NCBI GenBank assembly: GCA_963751565.1
Contig: CAVVVA010000013.1
Location: 28,902 to 92,901 of the forward strand
Direction: 5' to 3'
Length of the DNA: 64,000 nt
From: an uncultured Actinomycetes bacterium
GTDB lineage: Bacteria; Actinomycetota; Thermoleophilia; UBA2241
Within the stretch, counting starts at the first letter, position 1; the number at the start of each line of letters is the position of its first letter. This document shows positions 43,068 through 64,000 of this stretch, piece after piece. The notes under the pieces were generated by a model. The model did no database searches. It saw nothing but the letters and a program-made list of their open reading frames with translations, and had not been told where the DNA came from. Both the position numbers and the translations under genes were made by a program.

Positions 43068-43143
43068 GGGCCGCTAGCTCAGTTGGTAGAGCACCTGACT
43101 TTTAATCAGGGTGTCGTAGGTTCGAATCCTACGCGGCCCACCA
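43068..43143 (+). tRNA. tRNA-Lys (anticodon UUU), CCA encoded
   Basis: 7-bp acceptor stem GGGCCGC/GCGGCCC, D-arm 'tagctcagttggtagagc', anticodon stem-loop 'cctga-cuUUUaa-tcagg', T-arm 'gtaggttcgaatcctac', discriminator A and a genomic CCA. Confidence 0.95.
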
Positions 43144-44931
43144 GAAAGACCCTCTGAGCAGCGACTTTCGCTGCCCTGCGAAACCTCAAAGCGATCGCTG
43201 CCGACACGATGCCGACGCGTATACTTCAATATGCTTCAAGAAATCGATATTGTTTGAGGCCACCGAATCCCAGGCTTTGCAGGCATTCTCTCTTGCCCAA
43301 GGGCCACAGAAGGGCCGATTTGTTGAAGTATAACGGCCCTTTTGGACGCCAAGTGACGCGTATCTGACGCGGTTTGGCACCAAAACGGGCGATTCTGGCG
43401 GCAACCGGTCGTCGATGGTCGGCCCGCCGAGCACCTCGGCTCTGCGCTGTTCTCACCATCGCGAGATGCCGCAGGTACGCCAGCGCTCGGCGCAGTCAGG
43501 GAAGACCTCGACCGAGGCTCCGCTGTGCCCGCCGGGCCGGTCGAACGCGATCTGCTTAAGCTGCCAGTGATGGTCATCATGGCATCCACCTTACTCGCTT
43601 TGCCGTGCTCGATGAAACGCTCTCGCCCAGCTGATCGGCGACGGCCGATGCGAGGCCGGTCCTCGAGTCTGCGTGACCGCCTACGCTCAGACGCAGACCA
43701 ACAGCTCGGCGATCCGCTCGGCGGCCTCCTGGTCGGCTTGCGGCAGGACGTGCGAGTAGACATCCAAGGTGAGGGCCACGGTGGAGTGGCCGAGCCGTGC
43801 CGAGACGATGCGCGGGTTGACGCCACTGGCAAGGGCCAGCGTGGCGTAGGTGTGGCGCAGGCCATGCAGCGGGATCGGCGGCAGCATGGCCGCCTTGCGT
43901 GTGATCGCGGAAGGCCTTGCTCACCGCCCAGGGCTGCAGCGGCTGGCCGTCCTTGCGCGGTGAAGACGAAGCCCGCATCGATCCAGGCCTCATCCCAGTC
44001 GGACTGCTCGTCGGCCTGACGGGCGGCGTGGGCCTTGAGGGCCTCCAGCGTCACAGGGTCGAGGGCGATCGTACGCCGACCGCGCCTGGTCTTGGGCTCG
44101 CTCATCTGCGCCGACGCCGTTGACCGGCACCCAGGCCCGGCGGATGGTCAGCCGGCCGCCCTCCATGTCGAGGTCCTCCCAGGCAGACCGAGCGCCTCTC
44201 CTCGGCGCATGCCGGTCATCGCCAGCAGGCGCCAGAGGGCAAAGAGACGATCGTCGGTGACACTGGCAAGGAAGGCGGAGAGCTGCTCGGCCGTCCAGAC
44301 CGGCAGCCTCTCGGAGTGCTCGGCACTGGCCTTGGGCGGGTCGGCGGCATCGACCGGGTTCACCGTCAGCCTGCCCCAGCGTACGGCGTCGTGACAGGCC
44401 CGGTGCAGGACGGCGTGCACGCGGCGCACCGAGGAGGCCGAGAGACCGCCCTCCCCGCGGACGCGACCCTCCTCCAGCAGGTAGGCATAGAGGGCGTTGA
44501 TCGGCGCCGGCAGTGAGCTTCTGCAGCTGCAGGCTGCCCAGCCGGGGGATGATGTGCTCCCTGGCGAGCATCGTGTAGCTTGCGTAGGTGGTCGGCCGCA
44601 GCGTGCCCTTGACGGCCGGCAGCCACTCGGTCAGCAGGAAGGCCTTCACCGTGATCCTGGTGGGCGCCGTGAAGGTGCGCGCCTCGACGGCCGTCAGCAC
44701 CTTGCTCAAGGCCGCCTGGCACTCCTTGCGAGTGGTGTAGCCGCCCTTGATCGCCCGGCGGCGCTCCTCCGTCTCGAGCAGCTGGCCGCCGCACTTCGGA
44801 CAGGTCTCCCTGGGCTTGCGCTCGATCCAGAAGCGGCGGTTGCAGACCTGGCAGCGCTGCGCCGCCGCTGTGCCGATGTCGACGATGTACTCGAAGCTGC
44901 GCTCGCCCCTGCGGCGGATGTGACCGCGCAT
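43144..44931. mobile_element. remnant integration module of a tRNA-Lys-associated integrative element / genomic island (right boundary not identified)
   Basis: AT-richer DNA starts directly after the tRNA 3' end and is followed by a decayed tyrosine integrase. I found no second copy of the tRNA 3' end (attR) in the window. Confidence 0.5.
43687..44931 (-). pseudogene. tyrosine recombinase/phage-type integrase, at least five frameshifts
   Basis: The pieces read in order across three frames. They are an N-terminal zinc ribbon 'CQVCNRRFWIERKPRETCPKCGG' with a SAM-like core-binding part, 'AMTGMRRGEALGL' (catalytic Arg), 'WEDLDMEGGRLTI', 'KTRRGRRTIALDP', and 'LHGLRHTYATLAL...LGHSTVALTLDVYSHV' (R-H-...-Y). 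Confidence 0.85.
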
Positions 44932-46260
44932 GCTGATCTCCCTGACGCGCGTCTGTCTGTGCAAGCAGCTTCGCTCTGGGCGGGCAGGCCGGCAACGCGA
45001 GGGCAGGCACCAGAAGCACGAAATCCGCGCAGAGCTTGAACCTGTTCGGTGCGCCGAAGCGTCGGCAGCCGGTCGGCGGCAAGCATGCGGTGCGGCCACT
45101 TCTCGGCGTCAGCCGGTCTGGCAGCGGTGATGTGTGCGAGGGAATCTGTGCTGCTCGCCGTGGACGTGAGGAGTCAGATTCCCATCGCATCCAGGCGCTT
45201 TCAAGGGACCCCGTGTGCGGGCCATGGGGACCGGCAGCGCTGGGAGCGAATCTGCCACACCAGACGGCTAGTCACGACGGCGTTGTCAGCAACGGCTACG
45301 TGCAATCCCCGGCACGGCCTCGCCGATCTTGACCGCGTGTGGCTTGAGGTGTAAGCCGCACCCATACGAAACGGGCAAGAGTCGCACCATCACGGTAGTT
45401 GAGGACGCGCCGATCCGCCGGCTGTGTTTGCGGTCACCTGCTTATCCGGCGGGGAGCGACTGGCGAGACCGACCTCAAGGGCTGGTCCTCGTGCTTTTCG
45501 GGACCGAGCAGCTGTCAGAGGTGTCAGAGGCGCCCGCAAGGGCAGGGGGGTAGCGTGTCGGGTGCACCGTCTCGTGTAGGTGAGCGACGCTTTCGTCCGT
45601 TGTCGCCATCGCCGCTGCTCACAGACCTCTCGCCACGAGGAGCACCTGAGGCTTGGCGGCCAGAGAGGCTTGGCAGCAAGCCATCCGCAAGGCTGATCGG
45701 CCTGAAGGGGCCGGGTGGTGCCGAACCCCTGAAGTCAGTCCACTTCAACGCACGCTTCTCGACAACAAGTGGGTCTGTGGGGCCGGCGCTCGGCCGGCAG
45801 CGTTGGCCTGTCGTCGGCCAAGACCCTGACCGCGCACGGGTTTGTCGGCAACATGGTCTGTGCCCTGGACGCGATCTGGCGTCGCGTTTGCCAGCCGGAA
45901 AGGAGATTGGCAATGTTTGGAGGTGCCCCAATTAGGCTTGCAACGGGCGTGGCCGCTGTGGCCCTGGCCATGGTCGTGGGGATGGGCTTGGCCTCGCCTG
46001 ATTTCGCTTTCGCAGCGGCCAAACCCGTCGTTACCCATGTCAGTCCGGCCACTGGTTCGACCCTGGGTGGCACGACCGTAAGAATCAGCGGCAAGCACTT
46101 CATGGCGAATGGTCACAGTTTGGTGAAGAAGGTCAGGTTTGGAAAGAGAGCTGCAACGCACGTTCATGTGCGTTCCAAGGGCCGGATCACTGTCACCGCT
46201 CCTGTCGGCAAGGGCACCGTAAACGTCACCGTGACCACCACGGCCGGCACGAGCGCGAAG

Positions 46261-47068: not shown

Positions 47069-48470
47069 ACGCTGACCTTCGCCGCGAGCGGATTGAAGTC
47101 GGCCACCTCGAGCCCCACTAGCGTGACCCTCGCAATCGGCACTCCCTACGGCGGCGGCGTAGTCGCCTACATCCTGCAGTCCGGAGACCCTGGCTACGTG
47201 GCCGGACAAACGCACGGCTTGATCGCTGCCACGGTCGACCAAAGCACAGGAATCATATGGGCACTCCCGGCCTACCAAAGCACTGCTGTAGGAGGGACAG
47301 GTACCGCAATCGGGACCGGCTTGGCAAACACGAACGCGATCATCCTTCAGAACGGCGTCGGCACCACGTACGCAGCCGGTCTGGCAAGAGCCTACACCGG
47401 TGGCGGCTACGCCGACTGGTACCTGCCCAGCAAGGATGAACTGAATGAGCTGTACCTTAACCGAGTCGCAATCGGCATGTTTGAGTCCTGGTCGACCTCC
47501 TACTGGAGCTCCTCCGAGGCCCTTTTTGACAGCGCGTGGACTCAGGACTTCGCCAGCGGCGACCAGGGCGAGAACGGCCACTACAAGTGGGGCGTGAGCA
47601 GAGTGCGTGCTATCCGAGCTTTCTAGCCATGTATCCGTTCACCTATTGACGGGGGGCGCAGAAGGCTTACCGAATCGGCCAGGAGCCGTCGTTCTTGGCC
47701 TCCATTGAGCACAAGGTGGATAGGTAGGAGTCCGCCACCACGCTGCCGGAGGGCTTATCCATGGCTTCGTGTCGGCGCCCCGCTTGCAATCGGCAACGGC
47801 GCCATCCTGCTTGGCGTGGCCCTCATGGCGCTGACCTGGATCCTACGGCCGCGAATCTTCAAGCGCCGGCCTGAGTTGGTCGCAGACGAGGTCCGGGACG
47901 ATGCTTGAAATCACAAGGACGAACCTGCGCATGCACGCCTTCACCTTGGCGCGCTTCTTCTCAGACAGACACATCACCGTCGAGATCTGGCCGCAGAAGA
48001 AGTGGCTCATCCTCGCCGAAGCTTGATCAACTCTGCCAGCCGCGCCCAACGGCCGACGGTCGTCAGCGCCCGCCAAGCGCAGCTGAACGAGCTGAAGGGT
48101 TCGAGCGCGACCTTGGTCGCAAGCGCCGGAAGGGCCTTAGCCTCAAGGGCCGGAGGTCACCTCGCCATCTGAGTGCCTCGGCCCTTCCGCCCACGCTTGC
48201 ACGCCGCCGACCACGGGGTGCCGGCAACTCCACAATCAAAGCACGACCCCGCGGGCCCTCACAAGCGTTCGATCTCGCGGAGTGTCTGGCGGCATCGCGT
48301 CGGCAGAACCGCCTTGTGCAGCGATATCTCGGCCGTCACCGGTCTCGCACTGATGTGCGCCCGCATTACACCCGCCGACGGCGACAAGCACGTCCTCGTG
48401 TCTGCGGCCGCCCGAACGCTCAGCGACCTCTCAGCTGCTTTTCAGCGCATCCTTGGCTCAGGCGACGATA

Positions 48471-49415
<945 letters not shown>

Positions 49416-49614
49416 GTGACGCAGAGCCGGTCGTCGGCGCTGACCGTGCCGCTGAATGTGGCGGAGCCCTCGCCCCTGATTCTCAGCTCGTTTTCACCCT
49501 CTTCTCATCCGAAGTTCAAAGGCGACGGTCATGATGGGGAGGAGCAACATGCTCGTCGATGACCATGATTGCTGCGACTGCCCACGGAAAGCCACCACAG
49601 ACGAAGGGCCTGAC

Positions 49615-50052
49615 ATGACGAGTTTCACATATGCCGTGACCGTCCCTGCGAGCGTGAGCGCGGGGTCTCTCTGCCCCGACAGGCCGCTCGCCGTATCGAT
49701 GCGCCCGTCAGAGTTTGCGGCCGAGCTACTGTGGGCGACCGCGCGCGTTGCTGTGATCGCGCTGCGCGGCGAGATCGACGCCTACACGGCGCCGCGCTTC
49801 CGCGAGGCCGCCGAACGAGCGTTGCAGCGGGGCGCGAAGTCACTCGTCGTCGACCTGGGCGAGGTGGAGTTCATCGATGCAACTGGCCTGGGGGTGGCTG
49901 CGCAAGCCGCAAGGCGTCTGAGTGCGGGAGCCGTCGCAGTGGTGACTGCGCGCCGTTCGGTGGTGCACATCCTGCGCCTCGTCGGTCTCGACTACGTTCT
50001 GGAGGTCTGCGAGACGCGCGAGCAGGCGCTGCGCGCGCTGCCTGCCGACTGA
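49615..50052 (+). CDS. STAS-domain anti-sigma-factor antagonist (SpoIIAA/RsbV-like)
   Basis: 'VIALRGEIDAYTAPRFRE.........SLVVDLGEVEFIDATGLGV' followed by 'ILRLVGLD.VLEV'. The start is uncertain (49531 or 49615). Confidence 0.7.
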   Translation: MTSFTYAVTVPASVSAGSLCPDRPLAVSMRPSEFAAELLWATARVAVIALRGEIDAYTAPRFREAAERALQRGAKSLVVDLGEVEFIDATGLGVAAQAARRLSAGAVAVVTARRSVVHILRLVGLDYVLEVCETREQALRALPAD

Positions 50053-50295
50053 AGTCAGCCTCCGACACCAGTGGCGCCCACTTGCGGGGCCACCGCGCGC
50101 CGAGCGGTCCTTTGGCCCTGCAAGAAAGCGCTGGAGAGAGGCGGGAGTACCGGCATGGTGCACCGCTTCATACGACATTCTCAGCTGATGCTGACAGTAG
50201 TCTCACCGAAGAGTGACAGAGTGTGCAAGGCACCTCAGCGTGAGGCGTACCCCTTGCGCCCCGCCGCCAGGTCCCTTTGACCCGGGGACCTCTCA

Positions 50296-50685: not shown

Positions 50686-50916
50686 GTGAGAAAGCTGAGC
50701 TTCGCAGACGTGCGTGCCGCCGGCCTACCTGCCCACCTCCAGTCAACGTACGTGACCTACGAGTACCGGCCCCTTGGAGACGATGTCGCCGTGCGGCTCA
50801 CCACCGCTCGCAAGGCCCACGTCTGCACCACCTCACGCATGCCCGAGACTGGCTGGTTTCACAATGAGGGCTGTCCTTGTCCCTACTGCCGGGCGACAGA
50901 GGATGTCCTCCGATGA
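50686..50916 (+). CDS. hypothetical small Cys-containing protein (76 aa)
   Basis: GTG start lies 7 nt after a strong RBS AAGGAGG. C-terminal 'HNEGCPCPYC'. No family recognised. Confidence 0.45.
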   Translation: MRKLSFADVRAAGLPAHLQSTYVTYEYRPLGDDVAVRLTTARKAHVCTTSRMPETGWFHNEGCPCPYCRATEDVLR

Positions 50917-53053: not shown

Positions 53054-53259
53054 GCGCCCCACTCGACCCGTTTCGGGCCATCTTGGCCAGTGCCGCTTCA
53101 AGCCCAGCCTGCTGCGGCGTTCTCTGAGGTGTGCGTGGTCGAGTGCGGAGTGCATCAGGCTGCTTCGAGACCGGCTCCAACGTCGCCCGTCGTACACCCC
53201 CTGTGCCGCGCCGCAGGCAACGGGAGTCGCCGGTGACGGCACGCTTCTTCAAAGTCAAC

Positions 53260-53287
53260 TCTCAGCCCGGTCCCATGGCCGTCTCAG
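53260..53287 (+). promoter_or_regulatory. phased direct-repeat operator (TCTCAG-N5-TCCCAT-N5-TCTCAG) with -10-like TAACCT 10 nt downstream
   Basis: Hexamers sit at 53260, 53271 and 53282 (11-bp phase). TAACCT is at 53298-53303 and GTG at 53339. The module is paralogous to 57747-57774. Confidence 0.55.
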
Positions 53288-53338
53288 GCACTAACGGTAA
53301 CCTGACACTCAGCAGAGAACCCACACAGGAGCTTTGAA

Positions 53339-53695
53339 GTGATGGACACAAACAGATCCTGGAGGAAGCTATTTGCCTGGCGACCAGGGCCAGCGGCAAC
53401 TAAAGGCAAGGTGCGAGACAGAGAGTCCCTCTCAACATACGAGCTGCGCGAGCACTGTCTGAGGCGTCTGCTCAGCCAGGGCATGCCGCTCTGGAGTGAG
53501 GAGCCAGAACACTGTGACGGCTGCGGCCGCGAGCTGCTTCTCGGCGAGCGGGCACGGCTCATGTGTCGCGACGATGAGCTTCTGCTCGCCTGTCCGCTCT
53601 GTGCGCAGCGGCTCCTCGGCAAGGGCTACCTTGCCGTCAGCGCGGATGCCCAGACCGACGCCCCCGGGCAGGGACGTCTCTCGCTCGCCGGTTGA
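53339..53695 (+). CDS. hypothetical zinc-ribbon protein
   Basis: 118 aa. 'CDGCGRELLLGERARLMCRDDELLLACPLC' gives a CxxC...CxxC arrangement. RBS is AGGAG. No family recognised. Confidence 0.4.
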   Translation: MMDTNRSWRKLFAWRPGPAATKGKVRDRESLSTYELREHCLRRLLSQGMPLWSEEPEHCDGCGRELLLGERARLMCRDDELLLACPLCAQRLLGKGYLAVSADAQTDAPGQGRLSLAG

Positions 53696-53752: not shown

Positions 53753-55116
53753 TTGGCGGGGTTATCGTGTGTGGCGCTGGCCGTCCTTACTGCGGTAGCC
53801 TGGCCCGCGACCGCTGCAGCCGCGACGCGGCCGGACAGCCACACGCAGCCGCTCGTCAGTACGCAGCCGCTGGTCGGTTCGCAGCCGCGCCTCGGTGAGC
53901 ACGCGCTGGTCGAAACGCCGATGACCTCGGCCAACTGGTCGGGCTACGATGCGACCGGCGGTCCCTTCACCAGCGTCACCGCGACTTGGACCCAGCCGCG
54001 CATCCGGTACGCCGGTGTGACCTCGACCGATGTCGCCTTCTGGGTCGGGCTCGACGGCGACGGCTCCGACACCGTCGAGCAGATCGGCACCGAGGGCTAC
54101 AGCGAGGGCGCCGTCGGTTAACGATGCCTGGTATGAGGTGTATCCGGCTGCTCCCGTCACGCTCGGCATGACGATCCGGCCCGGCGACCTGCTGACCGCC
54201 TCCGTGACCGAGTCGGGCGGGGCAACCTTCAACCTGGCGCTCGTCGATCACACGAGCGGTGAGTCGTTCCACACGGCATAGACGATGAGCAGCCAGCCGG
54301 CACTGGCATCAGCTGAGGTCATCGCCGGGGCGCCGCCGAGCGACGACGGCGATGTCATGCCGCTGGCCAACTTCGGCCTTGTGCGGTTCAGCGCCTGTGC
54401 CTTCAACGGCCAGCCGATCAGTGCCTTCAATTTCAACCAGATCGCCATGGTCTCCGCCAGCACGGGCGCGACCCTGGCGGCCGCTCAGGCGCTGGGGGCC
54501 GACGGCGCCAGCTTCATCGTGGCGAGCGACCTCACGGCGCCGACCACAAAGGTCTCGGGTGCCGGTGTGGCCTGGCACGACAAGCCGGTGACGCTGCACG
54601 TTCACAGCGAGCGACAACGCTGGCGGCACCGGGGTGGCCTACACCGAGTACTCGCTCGACGGCGGCGCGATCTGGACCAAGGGCCGCGCCGTCACCATCT
54701 CCGCGCCCGCCGACCACGCAAACGACGGGATCCACACCGTGTTCTACCGCTCTGCCGATAAGGCCGGCAACCTGGAGAAGACCAGAAGCTGCCAGGTGAG
54801 GATCGACACGTGCCGCCCGACACCGATCGCCAATTGGTCGGCCGCCACGATCCCAGGCGAGCGCACCGCCCTGCGCTTCTATGTGAGCGACCCGCGCCCG
54901 GGTAGCCCCACAGCGACGGTGACGATCAGGATCCGCGACGCTCGCGGCAAGCTCCTGAAGAAGACCGTGCTTGCGGCGATCAAGGTCGACCGTACCCAGA
55001 ATTACGTCTTCGTCTGCACGCTCGCCACGGGCACCTGCCGGTTCACCGTCGGGGCGACCGATGCCGCCGGCAACCCGCAGACGGCGACGGCCACCAACAC
55101 GCTGGTCGTGCGGTAG
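53753..55116 (+). pseudogene. peptidase G1 (eqolisin/scytalidoglutamic peptidase-like) with C-terminal Ig-like/OmpL47-type domains; two frameshifts plus an in-frame TAG
   Basis: It starts with a signal peptide. 'SANWSGY......FTSV.A.W..P' and 'AFWVGLDG....VEQIGTE' are in frame 2. 'DAWYEVYP' is in frame 0 and stops at TAG 54279-54281. '...SAEVIAGAP......PLANFG.V.F' continues in the same frame. 'AYTEYSLDGG.W......HTVFYRSADKAGN.E' is in frame 1. Confidence 0.7.
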
Positions 55117-57473: not shown

Positions 57474-57746
57474 ATCGATCCTCCAGTGGCTTGCTTGACG
57501 GATGGTGTACTGCACTCACTTTGCGCGCCTCGCTTGAGGCATGCCGGTGAGCCCGTTGAGAGCTTGCTGAGAGATCCTGAGCCCAAGCTGTGTGTAGCTG
57601 AAGTTGGCGCCGGCCGCCCTATTGCAGTGCTCAAGCGGCAAGGCATCGCCCCGTCAGGCACCGGCTGTGCCTGTCGCGAGGGCTCCGAAAAGACCCGAAA
57701 ACACCGACGTGAACCGACAGCAGCGGCGCGCTTCGTCACAGTGAAC

Positions 57747-57774
57747 TCTCAGCCCGGCCTCACGGCCGTCTCAG
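57747..57774 (+). promoter_or_regulatory. phased direct-repeat operator (TCTCAG-N5-CCTCAC-N5-TCTCAG) with -10-like CAGGTT 10 nt downstream
   Basis: Hexamers sit at 57747, 57758 and 57769. CAGGTT is at 57785-57790 and GTG at 57826. The spacing is identical to the 53260 module. Confidence 0.55.
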
Positions 57775-58737: not shown

Positions 58738-59171
58738 CTCAGAGGAAGCTGGCGTACAGGTTCGCGGGAGGGTGCGCTGGTCAGAGCGCGAGAACGCGCG
58801 CCTCGAGTCGAGGATTGCTGACCCGATCTCATTCGTCAGTGCGGTTTTGTTGCTGGGGCGAGAGCTGCCGCGTGAGTGCCGGGGTGGGCAGCCTCAAAAG
58901 CGAGAGCCCCGGCAACACGATCGTCTGCGCTGCCGGCGATCGCCTGCCGGGCGGGCCGGTTACGCCTTGAGGGCACGGTGCCAGCGTGGCTCCCGCAGCT
59001 GGTCGGGGTGCCTCGAAAAGCACGGGGAAAGGACGGCAAGGGACTGGAACGGCGCGTGCCAGGTCAAGGGCCACATGCCCAGCGGATGCTCACCAGATTC
59101 TCGCGATACTCACAGGTTGGCATGGCAAGCTGAGGCTGCAACTTGGGGCGCTGCCCTTCGCGCCTCACTGC

Positions 59172-59200
59172 CGGGTCCCCCCTGCGCCGGGGACCCGTTT
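59172..59200 (+). terminator. 9-bp GC hairpin followed by TTT
   Basis: 'cgggtcccc-cctgcgcc-ggggacccg-ttt'. It lies between the convergent deacetylase and PBP genes. Confidence 0.4.
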
Positions 59201-59269: not shown

Positions 59270-61479
59270 TCAGCAACGCAACGGCGTTAACGTGCAGCCC
59301 TCTGGCCTTGGGGGCGAAGAGGTGCCTGGGGTGGCCGACGCAGGTACCGCTAGGGCTTGGTCGTGGGGTGGTGTCGGGGTCGTGGGCGTGGGGGTGGTCG
59401 GTGTGGGGGTAGGGGTAGGCGTCGGCGGGGCGGCCGTTATCGTGGCCGTCGGCGTCGGGGTCGGCTTCTTCGAGGCGTGTGGTGAGCTCGAAGGACTGGG
59501 CAGCGGCGACGAGGTGGCGTGGGCGCCCGCCAGGGGCTGAACGGCCAGCTCACCACGGCGAAGTCGGGGTGCGCGGCATCGGCCAGCGCCGCCGCCGTGA
59601 ACTGCGCCCACATCGGCGCGCAGTAGATGCCCCCGAAGGCGCCGCTCATCGGCAGATTGGCGTTGATGTCGCCCATCCAGACGCTGGTCGCAAGCTGCGG
59701 TGTGTAGCCGACATACCAGACGTCCCAGTTGTTCTCGGTGGTGCCGGTCTTGCCGGCGCGCGGGTAGGGAAAGGCGGCCGCCGTGGTGGCGCCCGTGCCC
59801 CGGCTGGCGACCTGCTCGAGGACCTGGGTGACGGTCGAGGCGACACCGGCCGGGATGGCGCGATTGCCCACCGTTGCCGGACGCCAGAGCACCCTGCCGC
59901 TGGCGCCGACCACCTTGACGACCGCCTGGGGTGAGTGGTGGATGCCGCCGTCGGCCAGCGTCGCGTAAGCGTCGGCCATCTCCAGCGGCGTGACGACCGA
60001 GGTCCCCAAGGTGATCGAGGGCACGGCCGCCAGCGGGCTGGTGATGCCCATGGCGTGGGCGACCCGTACGGTGTTTGCCGGTCCCACGTCGACCGAGAGG
60101 CGGGCAAAGACGGCGTTGTCTGAGATCACCGTGGCCTGGGCTATGGTCTCGGGCCCGCCGGGCCCGTCGCCGTGCACGACCCAGGGCGCCGCATAGGGTC
60201 CCATGGGGATGACCACCGGGCTCTGCGAGGAGTAGTAGGTGGTGAACGGGTCCAGGCCCCGTTCGACCGCCGCCGCCAGCACGAACGGTTTCATCGCCGA
60301 GCCCGGCTGGCGCCGGGCCTGCGAGGCCAGGTTGAACTGCTGCTTGGCGAAGTCAAGGCCGCCGACCATCGCCCGGATGTAGCCGGTGGTGGGGTCGATG
60401 GCTACCAGGGCGGCCGAGGGCTTGAAGCCGAAGTCAAGCGGCGAGACGGTGTTGCGCACGACGTCCAGGGCGTCGCTTTGCCAGGCGGAGTCGAGACTCG
60501 TGTAGACGCGCAGGCCGCCCTCGAAGACCTGCGCATAGCCGTAGCGTTTGACGAGCTCCTGCGTGACGTAGTCGACGAAGTAGGCGGCCGGGAGCACGCC
60601 GGTGGTGGTCAGGGGATGGACGCGCAGACCCGCTCGCTGGGCGCGGCGCTCCTGGGCCGGCGGTGATGTAGCCCTGGCTGGCCATGTCGCTGGAGCACCA
60701 CGTCGCGCACCTGGCGGGCGTCGGCGGGGTCGTAGATCGGCGAGTAGCCGCTGGGAGTCTTGGCGGCAGGCCGGCGAGCAGCGCCGACTGGGCCAGCGTG
60801 AGGCGGCGAGGCGTCTCGTGGAAGTAGGTCTCGGCGGCCGCCTCGACCCCGTAGGCGCCGTCGCCGTAGTAGACGGTGTTCAGATAGGCGGTCAGGATGC
60901 GATCCTTGGACCAGCGGTCCTTGAGCTCCCAGGCCAGGATCGCCTCGCGCAGCTTGCAGCGTGAGGTCTGCGTCATCCGCCGAGATAGGCGTTCTTGACA
61001 TACTGCTCGGTGATCGTGCTGCCACCCTGCACGGCGCGGCCGGCCGCGAGGTCGGCGAGCGCCGCCCGGGCGACCCCCTGCAAGTCGATGCCGTGAGTCG
61101 GAGTAGAAGCGCTTGTCCTCGATGGCCACGGTGGCCTGCTTCAGGACAGCGGGAGCGCCGAGCTGGGCACGATGACCCGGTTGACGGCGCCATGCAGCTC
61201 GGCCAGCAGCCGGCCCTGTGCGTCGTAGATCTTGGTGGTCTGGGCGGTGGCCGAGCTCTCCAGATGGCCGAGCTTGGGCAGGTTGCGCGACAGGGCGTAC
61301 ACGGCGCCGGCGGCCAGGCCGATGACCGCGACCACCAAGACGATGAGCGCCACTACGAAGATCTTCACGATGCGCAGGCGCGCGGCGGCGCGCGCGGCGC
61401 GCTGCCTGCGTCGCCGGCGCGGGCCGGGCAGCCCGACCCCCGACGAACGCTCGCCGCCGGCGCGCCCTGAGTTGCTCAT
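59270..61479 (-). pseudogene. class A penicillin-binding protein (GT51 glycosyltransferase + transpeptidase + Pro/Thr-rich tail), at least seven frame changes
   Basis: N-terminal TM anchor (61141..61479). GT51 motifs 'AIEDKRFY', '[10 protein letters not shown]...[15 protein letters not shown]', '[47 protein letters not shown]', '[14 protein letters not shown]' and 'MASQGYIT' are scattered over all three frames between about 61150 and 60600. The transpeptidase domain ('SAMKPF', 'SDN', 'KTGTT') is one intact ORF, 59437..60597. The PT-rich tail is in yet another frame (59270..59611). Confidence 0.8.
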
Positions 61480-61686
61480 CGGACTCTACCTGCCCTCATG
61501 GCGGCAGCAGGGCGACCAGGCTGTCGCTGGCCAAGCCGTGATGCGACTCGCACATCGTCACGGCGGTCCCGCCCTAACGACGGTATGCTGAGCGGTCCTC
61601 CCTGGCGCGAGCGCGCCGCGCAGCCGCGGGTAGCGCCAGACAAGAACGCCGCGCTGCGGCGCCGTGGCGCACCTTCGTGAGCGCCT

Positions 61687-61887
61687 TCATTGTGCGGTGC
61701 GGGAGTCGTCCTCAGAGGGCCGGCTAGCTGCGACCTGCCGCAAGTCGCGCCTGCGGCGTGGGCTCTGTGGGCTGCTCGCATCCGACGCTTCGGCGAGCGC
61801 CCGCCCATCTTCACCTTGGATGAGGTCGGCGAAAGCCAGCCTGAGCTCGATGGCGTGGATCAGTTGCACGGCCTCTACGCTGTCCAT
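61687..61887 (-). CDS. speculative leaderless small ORF (66 aa) directly downstream of the phased-repeat operator
   Basis: ATG at 61887 lies 7 nt after a -10-like TAGACA, which lies 10 nt after the last repeat unit. No RBS and no recognised family. Confidence 0.2.
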   Translation of the reverse strand: MDSVEAVQLIHAIELRLAFADLIQGEDGRALAEASDASSPQSPRRRRDLRQVAASRPSEDDSRTAQ

Positions 61888-61910
61888 GGCTGACTGTCTA
61901 CTCCCGGCGG

Positions 61911-61949
61911 CTGAGACCGCACTGACAGCAAGCTGACAACCTGCTGAGA
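61911..61949 (-). promoter_or_regulatory. four direct-repeat units T(C/G)TCAG at exact 11-bp phase (candidate OmpR/PhoB-family response-regulator operator)
   Basis: On the plus strand, CTGAGA at 61911, CTGACA at 61922, CTGACA at 61933 and CTGAGA at 61944. The site is 149 nt upstream of the response-regulator start at 62098. Confidence 0.6.
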
Positions 61950-62097
61950 CGCCCCGCGCAACGTCTGGGCAACGACCGAGGGTTCTTCGGTCGCAGACGC
62001 GCCTGGCGCCCGGCAAGACATTCACAGGAAGTTAACAGTCGGCTTTGAGCTGTCGTCCAGCTACCGGTGCGATACTGTACGGCAGGAGGTGGTCATC

Positions 62098-62799
62098 GTG
62101 ACCTCAAGTGGTGGCTCCCAACACATCCTCGTCGTCGATGACGAGCCGTCGATCGTTGACGCGGTGGCTACATCACTGCGCTACGAGGGATTCGACGTGC
62201 GTGAGGCGAGCACGGGGCGCGGCGCTTTGGACTCGGCCAAGGAACGGCCCCCCGACCTGATCGTACTCGACGTCATGCTGCCCGACTTCGACGGCCTTGA
62301 AGTGACACGGCGGCTGCGGGCGCTCGGCATCGAGGCGCCGGTGCTCTTTCTCACGGCTCGCGACTCTGTAAGGGACAGGATCGCCGGACTGTCGGTCGGC
62401 GCCGACGATTACGTCACCAAGCCCTTTGCTCTGGCGGAGATCGTCGCCCGCACCCGCGCGATCCTGCGCCGCACGTCAGGCGAGCCGGCAAGTGACCAGC
62501 CATTGCGCTTCGCCGATCTCGAGATGGACGAAGCCATCCACGAGGTACGCCGCGCCGGTGTGCCGATTCAGCTGACCATCACGGAGTACAATCTTCTCCG
62601 GTTCTTCCTGCTGAATCCGCGTCACGTGCTCTCCAAGATGCAGATCCTCGACCACGTCTGGCACTACGACTTCCAGGGCAACGCGAACGTCGTCGAGACC
62701 TACGTCGGCTACCTGCGCAAGAAGCTCGACCCACACGGACCGCCGCTGATCCATACGATCCGCCAGGTCGGCTACATCCTGCGCGACGCCACCGTCTAG
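62098..62799 (+). CDS. OmpR/PhoB-family response regulator
   Basis: Receiver domain ('ILVVDDEP', 'DLIVLDVMLPDFDG', 'LTA', 'KPF') plus a winged-helix trans_reg_C domain ('LT..EY.LL..F..NP..V.S...IL..VW', 'YV..LRKKL', 'I.T.R.VGY.L'). GTG 62098 lies 8 nt after AGGAGG; the ORF-track start 62089 overlaps the RBS. Confidence 0.9.
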   Translation: MTSSGGSQHILVVDDEPSIVDAVATSLRYEGFDVREASTGRGALDSAKERPPDLIVLDVMLPDFDGLEVTRRLRALGIEAPVLFLTARDSVRDRIAGLSVGADDYVTKPFALAEIVARTRAILRRTSGEPASDQPLRFADLEMDEAIHEVRRAGVPIQLTITEYNLLRFFLLNPRHVLSKMQILDHVWHYDFQGNANVVETYVGYLRKKLDPHGPPLIHTIRQVGYILRDATV

Positions 62800-62809
62800 A
62801 GGCCCTGAG

Positions 62810-64000
62810 TTGTCGCTTCGCGGCCGTCTGCTGCTCGCCGTCGGGGCCGCCGCCCTGGTCGCCCTGGTCGCGGCCGACGTGACGACCTATTCATTGCTGC
62901 GCTCGTTCCTCTTTACACGGGTCGACCAGACTCTGGACACGACGTACTTCTCCGTCGCACCCATGCTGCAGGGAGGTCTCGCGCCGCCCTCGGGCTCGTC
63001 GCACACCCCCCCCAAGCCCTCTACCGGCTCCCTGTCGAGCCTGGCGCCCGGCACCTTTGTACAGGAGCGCTCCGCGAGCGGCGCCATCGTCCCCAGCATC
63101 GGCCAGCCGGCGTTTACACCAGGCGGCAAGACCTACACACCGAAGTTACCGGCGCGCATCGGCGCTCCTGCCAAACAAGGCCGCAGCGGGGGCGCCATCT
63201 ACTTCACGGTGAGCTCAACAAAGGCGGGTGGCCCCCAGTTCCGTGTACGGGTCGCGTCGCTGGACGACGGTCGTCAGCTCATCGTCGCCACGCCGCTGGG
63301 CGACACCGCCGGCACGCTGCATCGCCTGCTGGCGGTCGAGCTGGCCGTGACGGCGGCGGCCCTGCTGGCCGCCGGTCTGCTGGGCTGGTGGCTCGTGCGC
63401 GTCGGCCTGCGGCCACTGCGTGCCATGGAGCGCTCGGCCGACGCAATCGCCGCGGGCGAGCTCGACCAGCGCGTCGCCGGCGAGAACGACAAGACCGAAG
63501 TCGGCCGACTGGCCCGCGCCCTGAACGTGATGCTGGGCCGCATACAGACCGCCTTTGCCGAGCGGGATGCCACCGAAGCCGACCTGCGCGCCTCGGAGGA
63601 GCGCATGCGCCACTTCGTGGCCGACGCCTCGCATGAGCTGCGCACACCGCTGGCGGCGGTCTCGGCCTACGCGGAGCTATTCGAACGCGGGGCCAACCAG
63701 CATGAAGCGGACCTGGGCCGCGTCATGGGCGGCATCCGCGTCGAGAGCGGCTCGCATGAAGGCGCTCGTCGAAGACCTGCTGCTGCTCGCCAGACTGGAC
63801 GAGGGTCGCCCGATCGAACGGGAGCCGGTCGAGCTCGTCGGCCTTGCCGCCGAAGCAGTGCAGACGGCCGAGACGATCGGTGCGGCTTGGCCGGTCCACC
63901 TCGACGCCGACCAGCCGGTGGAGACCATGGGCGACCGCGATCGCCTGCGTCAGGTGCTCGACAACCTGCTCGTCAACGTCCGCACCCACACGCCGGCAGG
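62810..64000 (+). pseudogene. sensor histidine kinase (2 TM, HAMP, DHp H-box), +1 frameshift near 63749, 3' end outside window
   Basis: TTG 62810. TM1 'LLLAVGAAALVALVAADV', TM2/HAMP 'LAVELAVTAAALLAAGLLGWWLVRVGLRPL...AGEL..RV' and H-box 'FVADASHELRTPL'. After 'GIRVES' the reading must shift by one base to continue 'ARMKALVEDLLLLARLDEGRP...LRQVLDNLLVNV'. Confidence 0.8.

Follow-up and report, generated by a model that had tools for sequence, protein, structure and literature searches.

In Mycobacterium tuberculosis, the response regulator PhoP binds as a head-to-tail dimer to direct repeats of TCACAGC separated by a strict 4-bp spacer, giving an 11-bp period (PMC4832192). PhoP also binds three and four motifs cooperatively, with a stoichiometry that fits trimers and tetramers; in the structure, V213, Y217 and Y220 contact the C at motif position 2, and the A at position 3 is contacted only via a water molecule shared by N212 and S216 (PMC4832192). 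In cryo-EM complexes containing two, four or six PhoP, the promoter-proximal dimer overlaps the -35 region and displaces sigma region 4 (PMC11825685). The box of E. coli PhoB, as quoted in PMC4832192, is CTGTCAT. Small genes activated by such regulators are also known; M. tuberculosis Mcr7 is reported to be a PhoP-dependent ncRNA (PMC4038636).

We analyzed a 64-kb stretch of DNA from an uncultured actinobacterium, hereafter the window, in which four hexamers beside the gene of an OmpR-family regulator had been proposed as an operator. The hexamers CTGAGA (61911-61916), CTGACA (61922-61927), CTGACA (61933-61938) and CTGAGA (61944-61949) start exactly 11 bp apart in a 609-bp intergenic gap (61480-62088), 149 nt from the GTG (62098) of the regulator gene; all of this was re-read from the sequence and is correct as originally described. 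On the minus strand the array reads TCTCAG-caggt-TGTCAG-cttgc-TGTCAG-tgcgg-TCTCAG, with the first bases of the units at 61949, 61938, 61927 and 61916. It is followed, as had also been described, by ccgccgggag (10 nt), TAGACA (61900-61895), gtcagcc (7 nt) and the ATG at 61887 of a 66-codon ORF. The features of the locus are compiled in Table 1.

Table 1. Coordinates of the regulatory locus and of the four-unit arrays in the window.
Feature	Position	Strand	Remarks
Four-hexamer array	61911..61949	-	Proposed to bind the regulator as a tandem tetramer
Candidate -10 element	TAGACA 61900-61895, or GACAGT 61898-61893	-	Putative; GACAGT lies two bases further
66-codon ORF	61687..61887	-	Small protein or non-coding; same length in L081 and L082
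Regulator promoter array TCACAG / TAACAG / TTTGAG / GTCCAG	62022..62060	+	11-bp phase; likely autoregulatory site
GATACT	62071..62076	+	-10 candidate of the regulator promoter, 10 nt past the fourth unit
OmpR-family response regulator gene, M. tuberculosis PhoP type	62098..62799	+	Alternative GTG start at 62089
Cognate histidine kinase gene	62810..64000, past the window end	+	Putative TTG start at 62810
Array GCTCAG / TCTCAG / TTTCAG / CCTTGG	48418..48456	+	24.8 bits; sigma-70-family factor gene downstream
Array TCTCAG / TTTCAC / TCTCAT / GTTCAA, then CATGAT	49481..49519	+	20.7 bits; STAS-domain (anti-sigma antagonist-like) gene downstream
Array TCATAC / TCTCAG / GCTGAC / TCTCAC, then CAGAGT	50168..50206	+	18.4 bits
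Array TCAAAG / TCTCAG / TCCCAT / TCTCAG, then TAACCT (53298-53303)	53249..53287	+	24.9 bits
Array TCTCAG / TCTCAA / TCACCG / CCTCAA, then CAAAGT	57534..57572	-	21.2 bits; MacB/FtsX permease and ABC ATPase genes downstream
Array TCACAG / TCTCAG / CCTCAC / TCTCAG, then CAGGTT	57736..57774	+	20.7 bits; polysaccharide deacetylase downstream (probable GTG 57826)
Array GCCCAG / GCTCAC / TCTCGC / TCACAG, then CAAGCT	59077..59115	+	20.0 bits; antisense into the PBP gene 3' end

The adjacent regulator comprises a receiver domain (Response_reg, PF00072, 1e-30) and a winged-helix domain (Trans_reg_C, PF00486, 8.5e-24). Its best match is M. tuberculosis PhoP (Rv0757; E 2e-80, 56.7% identity), ahead of PrrA (2e-57), MtrA (2e-45) and RegX3 (4e-44), in a ranking that covers regulators with solved structures, so that MprA, TcrX and others lie outside the comparison. 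The homologue set retrieved from reference genomes with this protein includes true mycobacterial PhoP orthologues, which are 90-97% identical to M. tuberculosis PhoP. The recognition helix reads NVVETYVGY, compared with NVVESYVSY in M. tuberculosis PhoP (N212 to Y220). Six of the seven base-reading residues are identical (N212, V213, E215, Y217, Y220 and R237 of the wing), the seventh, S216, is replaced by T, and the phosphate-contact residue S219 is G. From the sequence, the S216T substitution may be connected to a preference for T at hexamer position 3. Among named organisms, the regulator is closest to proteins from Acidimicrobiales metagenome-assembled genomes (77-79% identity). As a search of the genome collection with the regulator protein yielded nothing above 61% identity, the homologous loci obtained there were used for learning the motif and not for an orthologous comparison of the array.

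The motif was learned de novo from about 230 bp upstream of the regulator gene at 85 homologous loci, with the window and two near-identical relatives (L081 and L082) excluded, using expectation-maximisation from 60 random seeds. The best-scoring runs returned GTTCACAGCAAACTCACAGG, that is, TCACAG-N5-TCACAG. In the learned hexamer, the A at position 5 is the best conserved base (0.94), position 2 is C at a frequency of 0.85 and G at 0.02, and position 3 is A at 0.46 and T at 0.36; TCTCAG is thus a normal variant, and units of this sequence are also present at the homologues' own regulator promoters. By inspection, the same pattern with a -10-like hexamer about 10 nt further on is found in Streptomyces, Solirubrobacterales and others, e.g. 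TTCTCAGGGAATTCACAGG, and 34/85 homologues carry the four-unit design plus -10 hexamer at their own promoter.

We scanned the window with a four-unit score, the learned unit score summed over four units in 11-bp phase, at a cut-off of 18 bits. Ten positions reached this value and represent nine distinct arrays, compared with a mean of 0.02 in 200 first-order Markov simulations, and control spacings of 7-10 and 12-16 bp gave no array of at least 15 bits in the same window. The array at 61911-61949 ranks fourth (21.3 bits). All nine arrays lie within 48.4-62.1 kb (about 14 kb), as do the 15 best matches of a 20-nt dimer matrix. A motif derived from homologues of the adjacent PhoP-type protein therefore picks this array among nine, consistent with its proposed role as an operator of that regulator. 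The core of the original interpretation, an operator for the neighbouring regulator with one helical turn per unit, at a constant 10 nt from a -10 hexamer and within a local regulon, is supported by all computational tests that could be applied, and the predicted regulon comprises nine arrays rather than the three sites originally listed.

The arrays share more than their units. In 9/9 a gap of 10 nt separates the fourth unit from a -10-like hexamer, and in eight of them nAnnnT stands at exactly +49 from the first unit, for which base composition predicts about 2% per site. This is the geometry previously noted at 53260 and 57747, where TCTCAG (53282), 10 nt and TAACCT, and TCTCAG (57769), 10 nt and CAGGTT, follow one another. 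The sole exception is TAGACA at the common offset of the 61911-61949 array, which has no T at position 6; GACAGT (61898-61893) fits nAnnnT. A consensus scan of the gap detected no sigma-70-type -35/-10 promoter, which is the expectation for activator-dependent promoters, and an Rfam search of 61300-62200 assigned no RNA family, its sole match having an E value of 0.82.

The hexamer CTGASA alone is not enriched in the window (35 observed vs 54.5 expected). For the dimer pattern CTGASA-N5-CTGASA, all three matches in the window fall inside the array at 61911-61949, and 100 shuffles produced none; across 1.65 Mb of natural actinobacterial sequence it has one occurrence besides homologous arrays. 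Among about 1.6 Mb of homologous loci, only 12 four-unit arrays lie away from regulator promoters (0.48 per 64 kb), 10/12 of them with nAnnnT at the offset. Within the array, the inner units are TGTCAG, with an atypical G at position 2. The minus-strand dimers score a modest 9.9 and 8.2 bits because G is found at only 2% of homologue sites at this base, which PhoP reads directly. Judged by their sequence, the inner units are probably weak sites, held via cooperativity between the two perfect outer units.

The remaining arrays precede genes of several kinds. Downstream of the 48418 array, GATAAT (48467-48472) is separated by 7 nt from the ATG (48480) of the sigma-70-family factor. This factor has regions 1.2, 2, 3 and 4, and its gene is apparently leaderless. 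The presence of separate arrays at the sigma factor and STAS genes (48418-50052, plus strand) suggests a regulator-to-sigma-factor cascade. The target of the 50168 array may be a 76-aa ORF (50686-50916) about 470 nt downstream. This plus-strand ORF ends in GCxCPYCR and is 61% identical to the gene immediately upstream of the regulator at another related locus (L209, 4627-4857). The 53249 array is followed by a zinc-ribbon-like ORF of 117/118 aa (53339/53342-53695) and then by peptidase A4 gene fragments; the 57.7-kb promoter is paralogous to this 53.2-kb promoter, leader included. The 117/118-aa protein (53339-53695) has CxxC...CPLC motifs and no Pfam family, and is 68% identical to the gene directly beside the two-component genes in L081 (9103-9444) and L082 (9062-9403), whose array-bearing promoter is homologous as well. 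About 40 nt past the predicted start of the 59077 promoter, a 9-bp G+C-rich hairpin (59172-59197) is followed by TTTCGG, and array and hairpin together could specify a short regulator-dependent RNA or a shared terminator. The end of the PBP gene (59437-59560, minus strand) encodes a Pro/Thr-rich low-complexity tail, PTPTPTPTTPTPTTPTPP.

Promoters of ECF sigma factors are marked by AAC around -35 and CGT around -10, with about 16-17 nt between them. At both 53.2 and 57.7 kb, AAC and CGTCT are 20 nt apart, by which an ECF promoter was ruled out, and the array at 61911-61949 contains no AAC.

The regulator gene has an array of its own. The best 20-nt-dimer match in the window, ATTCACAGGAAGTTAACAGT at 62020 (20.1 bits), lies in the regulator promoter, whose first two units with their following bases read TCACAGg-aagt-TAACAGt. 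This array and that at 61911-61949 form one design in 11-nt rows, arranged back-to-back with their first units 73 bp apart. The array at 62022-62060 is kept in all orthologues examined (L081-L087, L209 and L210; 79-97% protein identity), which carry GATGCT, CATGCT, GATACT or CAAGGT at its -10 offset, and the DNA homology with the orthologues of 79-89% identity starts at 62016, at the edge of this array. Autoregulation had originally been considered possible for the array at 61911-61949, and the second array had not been listed; being conserved in every orthologue examined, the second array is the better candidate for it. The divergent two-array arrangement recurs independently in other lineages, since a strong divergent four-unit array stands back-to-back with the regulator promoter at two distant homologous loci (L042 near 9787 and L078 near 9913, both on the minus strand). 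Another placement was observed in two relatives with regulators 89-91% identical, where a four-unit array lies just past the kinase gene and before the next gene (L208 2329-2367 and L209 7257-7295, both on the plus strand); its units are TCACAG / TCCCAG / TCGCTG / CCACAG, followed by TAGTAG or TAGTAC.

We compared the surroundings of the array among relatives. L081 and L082, with regulators of 97% and 94% identity, respectively, have both the array at 61911-61949 and the 66-codon ORF, although one unit is mutated to TGTCGG in L082. DNA homology with these loci begins at window position 61669, just beyond the ORF stop codon. Further left, L081 and L082 lack the PBP gene and instead have a homologue of the 117-aa zinc-ribbon gene with its own array. 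The array and ORF are thus part of the two-component cassette, which carries the array into three different genomic contexts, and a link to the PBP gene finds no support in conservation. The expectation that the array would be conserved at orthologous two-component systems holds for L081 and L082, but the array is absent from relatives with regulators 79-89% identical, including L209 and L210 (88-89%), in which the upstream DNA is present. At intermediate divergence (regulators 88-91% identical), L208, L209 and L210 are thus either free of the array or have no upstream DNA. The feature is therefore young and lineage-specific.

Several genes of the window are split over reading frames, namely those for the class A PBP (transglycosylase and transpeptidase; 59437-61479, minus strand), peptidase A4 (53753-54761, plus strand), an integrase (43236-45099, minus strand) and the kinase, which reflects either indel errors of long-read assembly or real pseudogenes. 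Compared with L081 and with L082, the kinase gene has one extra nucleotide near 63752, a frameshift in the assembly; if it is real, the two-component system may be inactive in this organism.

As the ATG of the 66-codon ORF lies only 7 nt past the -10 candidate, the predicted transcript is leaderless, and in actinobacteria transcripts starting at their AUG usually get translated. The length of the ORF and its first 20 residues are unchanged in all three copies (window, L081 and L082). Between the window and L081, substitutions are distributed 14/23/23 over the codon positions, with 33 nonsynonymous versus 11 synonymous codon changes, and these counts reveal no purifying selection or protein-level constraint. 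A homologue search with the 66-aa product found none, and tblastn of all fetched loci found L081 and L082 only. Given the even spread over codon positions, the mostly nonsynonymous changes and the lack of further homologues, coding by the ORF is uncertain. The predicted product has no membrane segment. In the interval from the ORF to the PBP gene (start 61479), a consensus scan called no intrinsic terminator, and the stability of a hairpin near 61640 does not exceed that of shuffles (z = +1.0).

We consider it likely that 61911-61949 is a site for four tandem protomers, i.e. two boxes, of the adjacent PhoP-type regulator, located at the -35 position of a leftward, activator-dependent promoter. 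In the model that we infer from these sequences, the kinase would phosphorylate the regulator, whose protomers would line up head-to-tail along the four hexamers, each one helical turn from the next. Those nearest the promoter would stand in for the -35 contact that is lacking and bring RNA polymerase to the -10 hexamer, which follows after 10 nt, so that the array would act in activation rather than repression. The transcript would start on or immediately beside the ATG at 61887 and would thus be a leaderless message of the 66-codon ORF, which may be translated. The second, back-to-back array would drive the regulator-kinase operon, and seven further promoters at 48.4-59.1 kb would bring more genes under the same regulator: those for the sigma factor, the STAS protein, the zinc-ribbon protein and peptidase, a MacB-type ABC transporter and a polysaccharide deacetylase.

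The same regulator might instead use the array, as an auxiliary or looping site lying upstream, to adjust the autoregulation of its operon by activation or repression, with no separate leftward promoter. The inner units are quasi-palindromic (CTGACAG), the plus-strand dimer TGACAG-caagc-TGACAA scores 13.1 bits, above the minus-strand dimers, and its first base, 61923, sits 99 bp (9 x 11) from 62022, the first base of the first unit at the regulator promoter. Up to three boxes, together with upstream repressing sites, have moreover been published for PhoP and GlnR promoters. The near-palindromic core, the higher plus-strand score and the 99-bp register thus leave room for an auxiliary role. However, the outer units are perfect TCTCAG on the minus strand only, the plus-strand four-unit score is below 11 bits, the minus-strand geometry to the -10-like hexamer and ATG copies that of the eight other promoters, and the orthologues of 79-89% identity retain the regulator promoter without this array. 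We therefore regard this explanation as unlikely.

It is still less probable that the array is the operator of another OmpR/PhoB-family regulator, encoded elsewhere in the genome and preferring TGTCAG or TCTCAG, its position beside the PhoP-type gene being incidental or a matter of cross-talk. G at position 2 is indeed atypical for PhoP-type sites, and TGTCA is the core of the PhoB box. Yet the array moves with the two-component cassette, homologues have TCTCAG units at the promoters of their own genes, both TCACAG and TCTCAG units occur among the other eight arrays, and the annotated part of the window (beyond its first 43 kb) encodes no second OmpR-type regulator. The least credible explanation, to which we give very little weight, is a chance or non-functional repeat, either a slipped 11-bp tandem duplication or a mobile-element relic. 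The region does lie within an island bearing integrase remnants, and a metagenome-wide scan for four TSTCAG-N5 units yielded at least 120 matches at many unrelated loci. In most of the matches listed, however, a whole 11-mer is repeated in tandem, with spacers that are the same or almost the same, and none of those listed adjoins a PhoP-like gene. The spacers of our array (caggt, cttgc, tgcgg and, past the last unit, ccgcc) are mutually unrelated, and repetition is confined to the hexamers; as the spacers are not copies of one another, a slippage minisatellite was ruled out, and the pattern looks like a protein-binding array. Such arrays are also essentially missing from shuffles, from Markov simulations, from 1.6 Mb of natural DNA and at other spacings. 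The array is real and far exceeds chance expectation. A site for four protomers of the PhoP-type regulator remains the reading that we prefer.

The surroundings of the cluster offer a wider, speculative view. Integrase remnants at 43098-45100 share 82-94% DNA identity with an integrase region about 8-10 kb from the L082 two-component genes, and the G+C content is 0.56-0.66 over about 45-53.5 kb, compared with about 0.70-0.72 elsewhere in the window. Possibly, the array-rich cluster belongs to a mobile island that has become integrated. In a doubtful extension of this idea, the array, leaderless transcript, back-to-back promoter and regulator-kinase genes would form a portable cassette, in which the transcript, as protein or RNA, would serve for feedback or as a connector and be induced by the regulator. 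The 44-64 kb region, which has the integrase remnants at one end, a lower G+C and nine promoters that would all answer to the cassette's regulator, would then be a self-contained, horizontally mobile envelope-stress regulon.

Three known systems provide the comparison. In E. coli, mgrB encodes a PhoP-activated 47-aa feedback peptide. Like mgrB and Mcr7, the leftward promoter would produce a short transcript apparently dependent directly on the regulator's box, although the 66-codon ORF has no sequence similarity to either. The E. coli Pho box resembles our array in its direct repeats one helical turn apart and, as predicted here, in the replacement of the -35 element and in tandem head-to-tail binding; its TGTCA core also resembles the inner TGTCAG units. 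In contrast, PhoB matches the regulator at an E value of about 1e-23 over the receiver domain only, and it is the M. tuberculosis PhoP motif, not CTGTCAT, that is matched by the outer units and by the other eight arrays.

M. tuberculosis PhoP, with its direct-repeat (PHO) boxes, among them those of the autoregulated phoP promoter, is the closest counterpart. Its boxes share the 11-bp period (7-bp motif plus 4-bp spacer) and the TCACAG(C) consensus found at the regulator's own promoter; at 61911-61949 the period and spacer fit, with units reading TCTCAGc, TGTCAGc, TGTCAGt and TCTCAGc. Unlike the mycobacterial boxes, most units in the window are TCTCAG instead of TCACAG, the inner units of our array being TGTCAG, and the predicted targets are envelope and sigma-factor genes in one 14-kb cluster, whereas the mycobacterial regulon concerns lipids and ESX-1. 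As in the M. tuberculosis 4PhoP complex, four tandem units would place the proximal ones at the -35 position, judging from sequence. Tandem four-protomer sites replacing the -35 element are an already published mechanism, and no new one is revealed here; the mildly unusual aspects are limited to the close grouping of nine promoters, which may lie on a mobile island, and to the short transcript linked with the cassette. Nevertheless, a putative recognition code of TC[A/T]CAG units, four in an 11-bp period and 10 nt before a -10 hexamer, was read from sequence alone, and a predicted regulon of nine promoters is assigned to a two-component system of an uncultured actinobacterium. As the four-protomer design of M. 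tuberculosis PhoP is found at promoters of PhoP homologues across Actinobacteria, regulon prediction for this family becomes straightforward.
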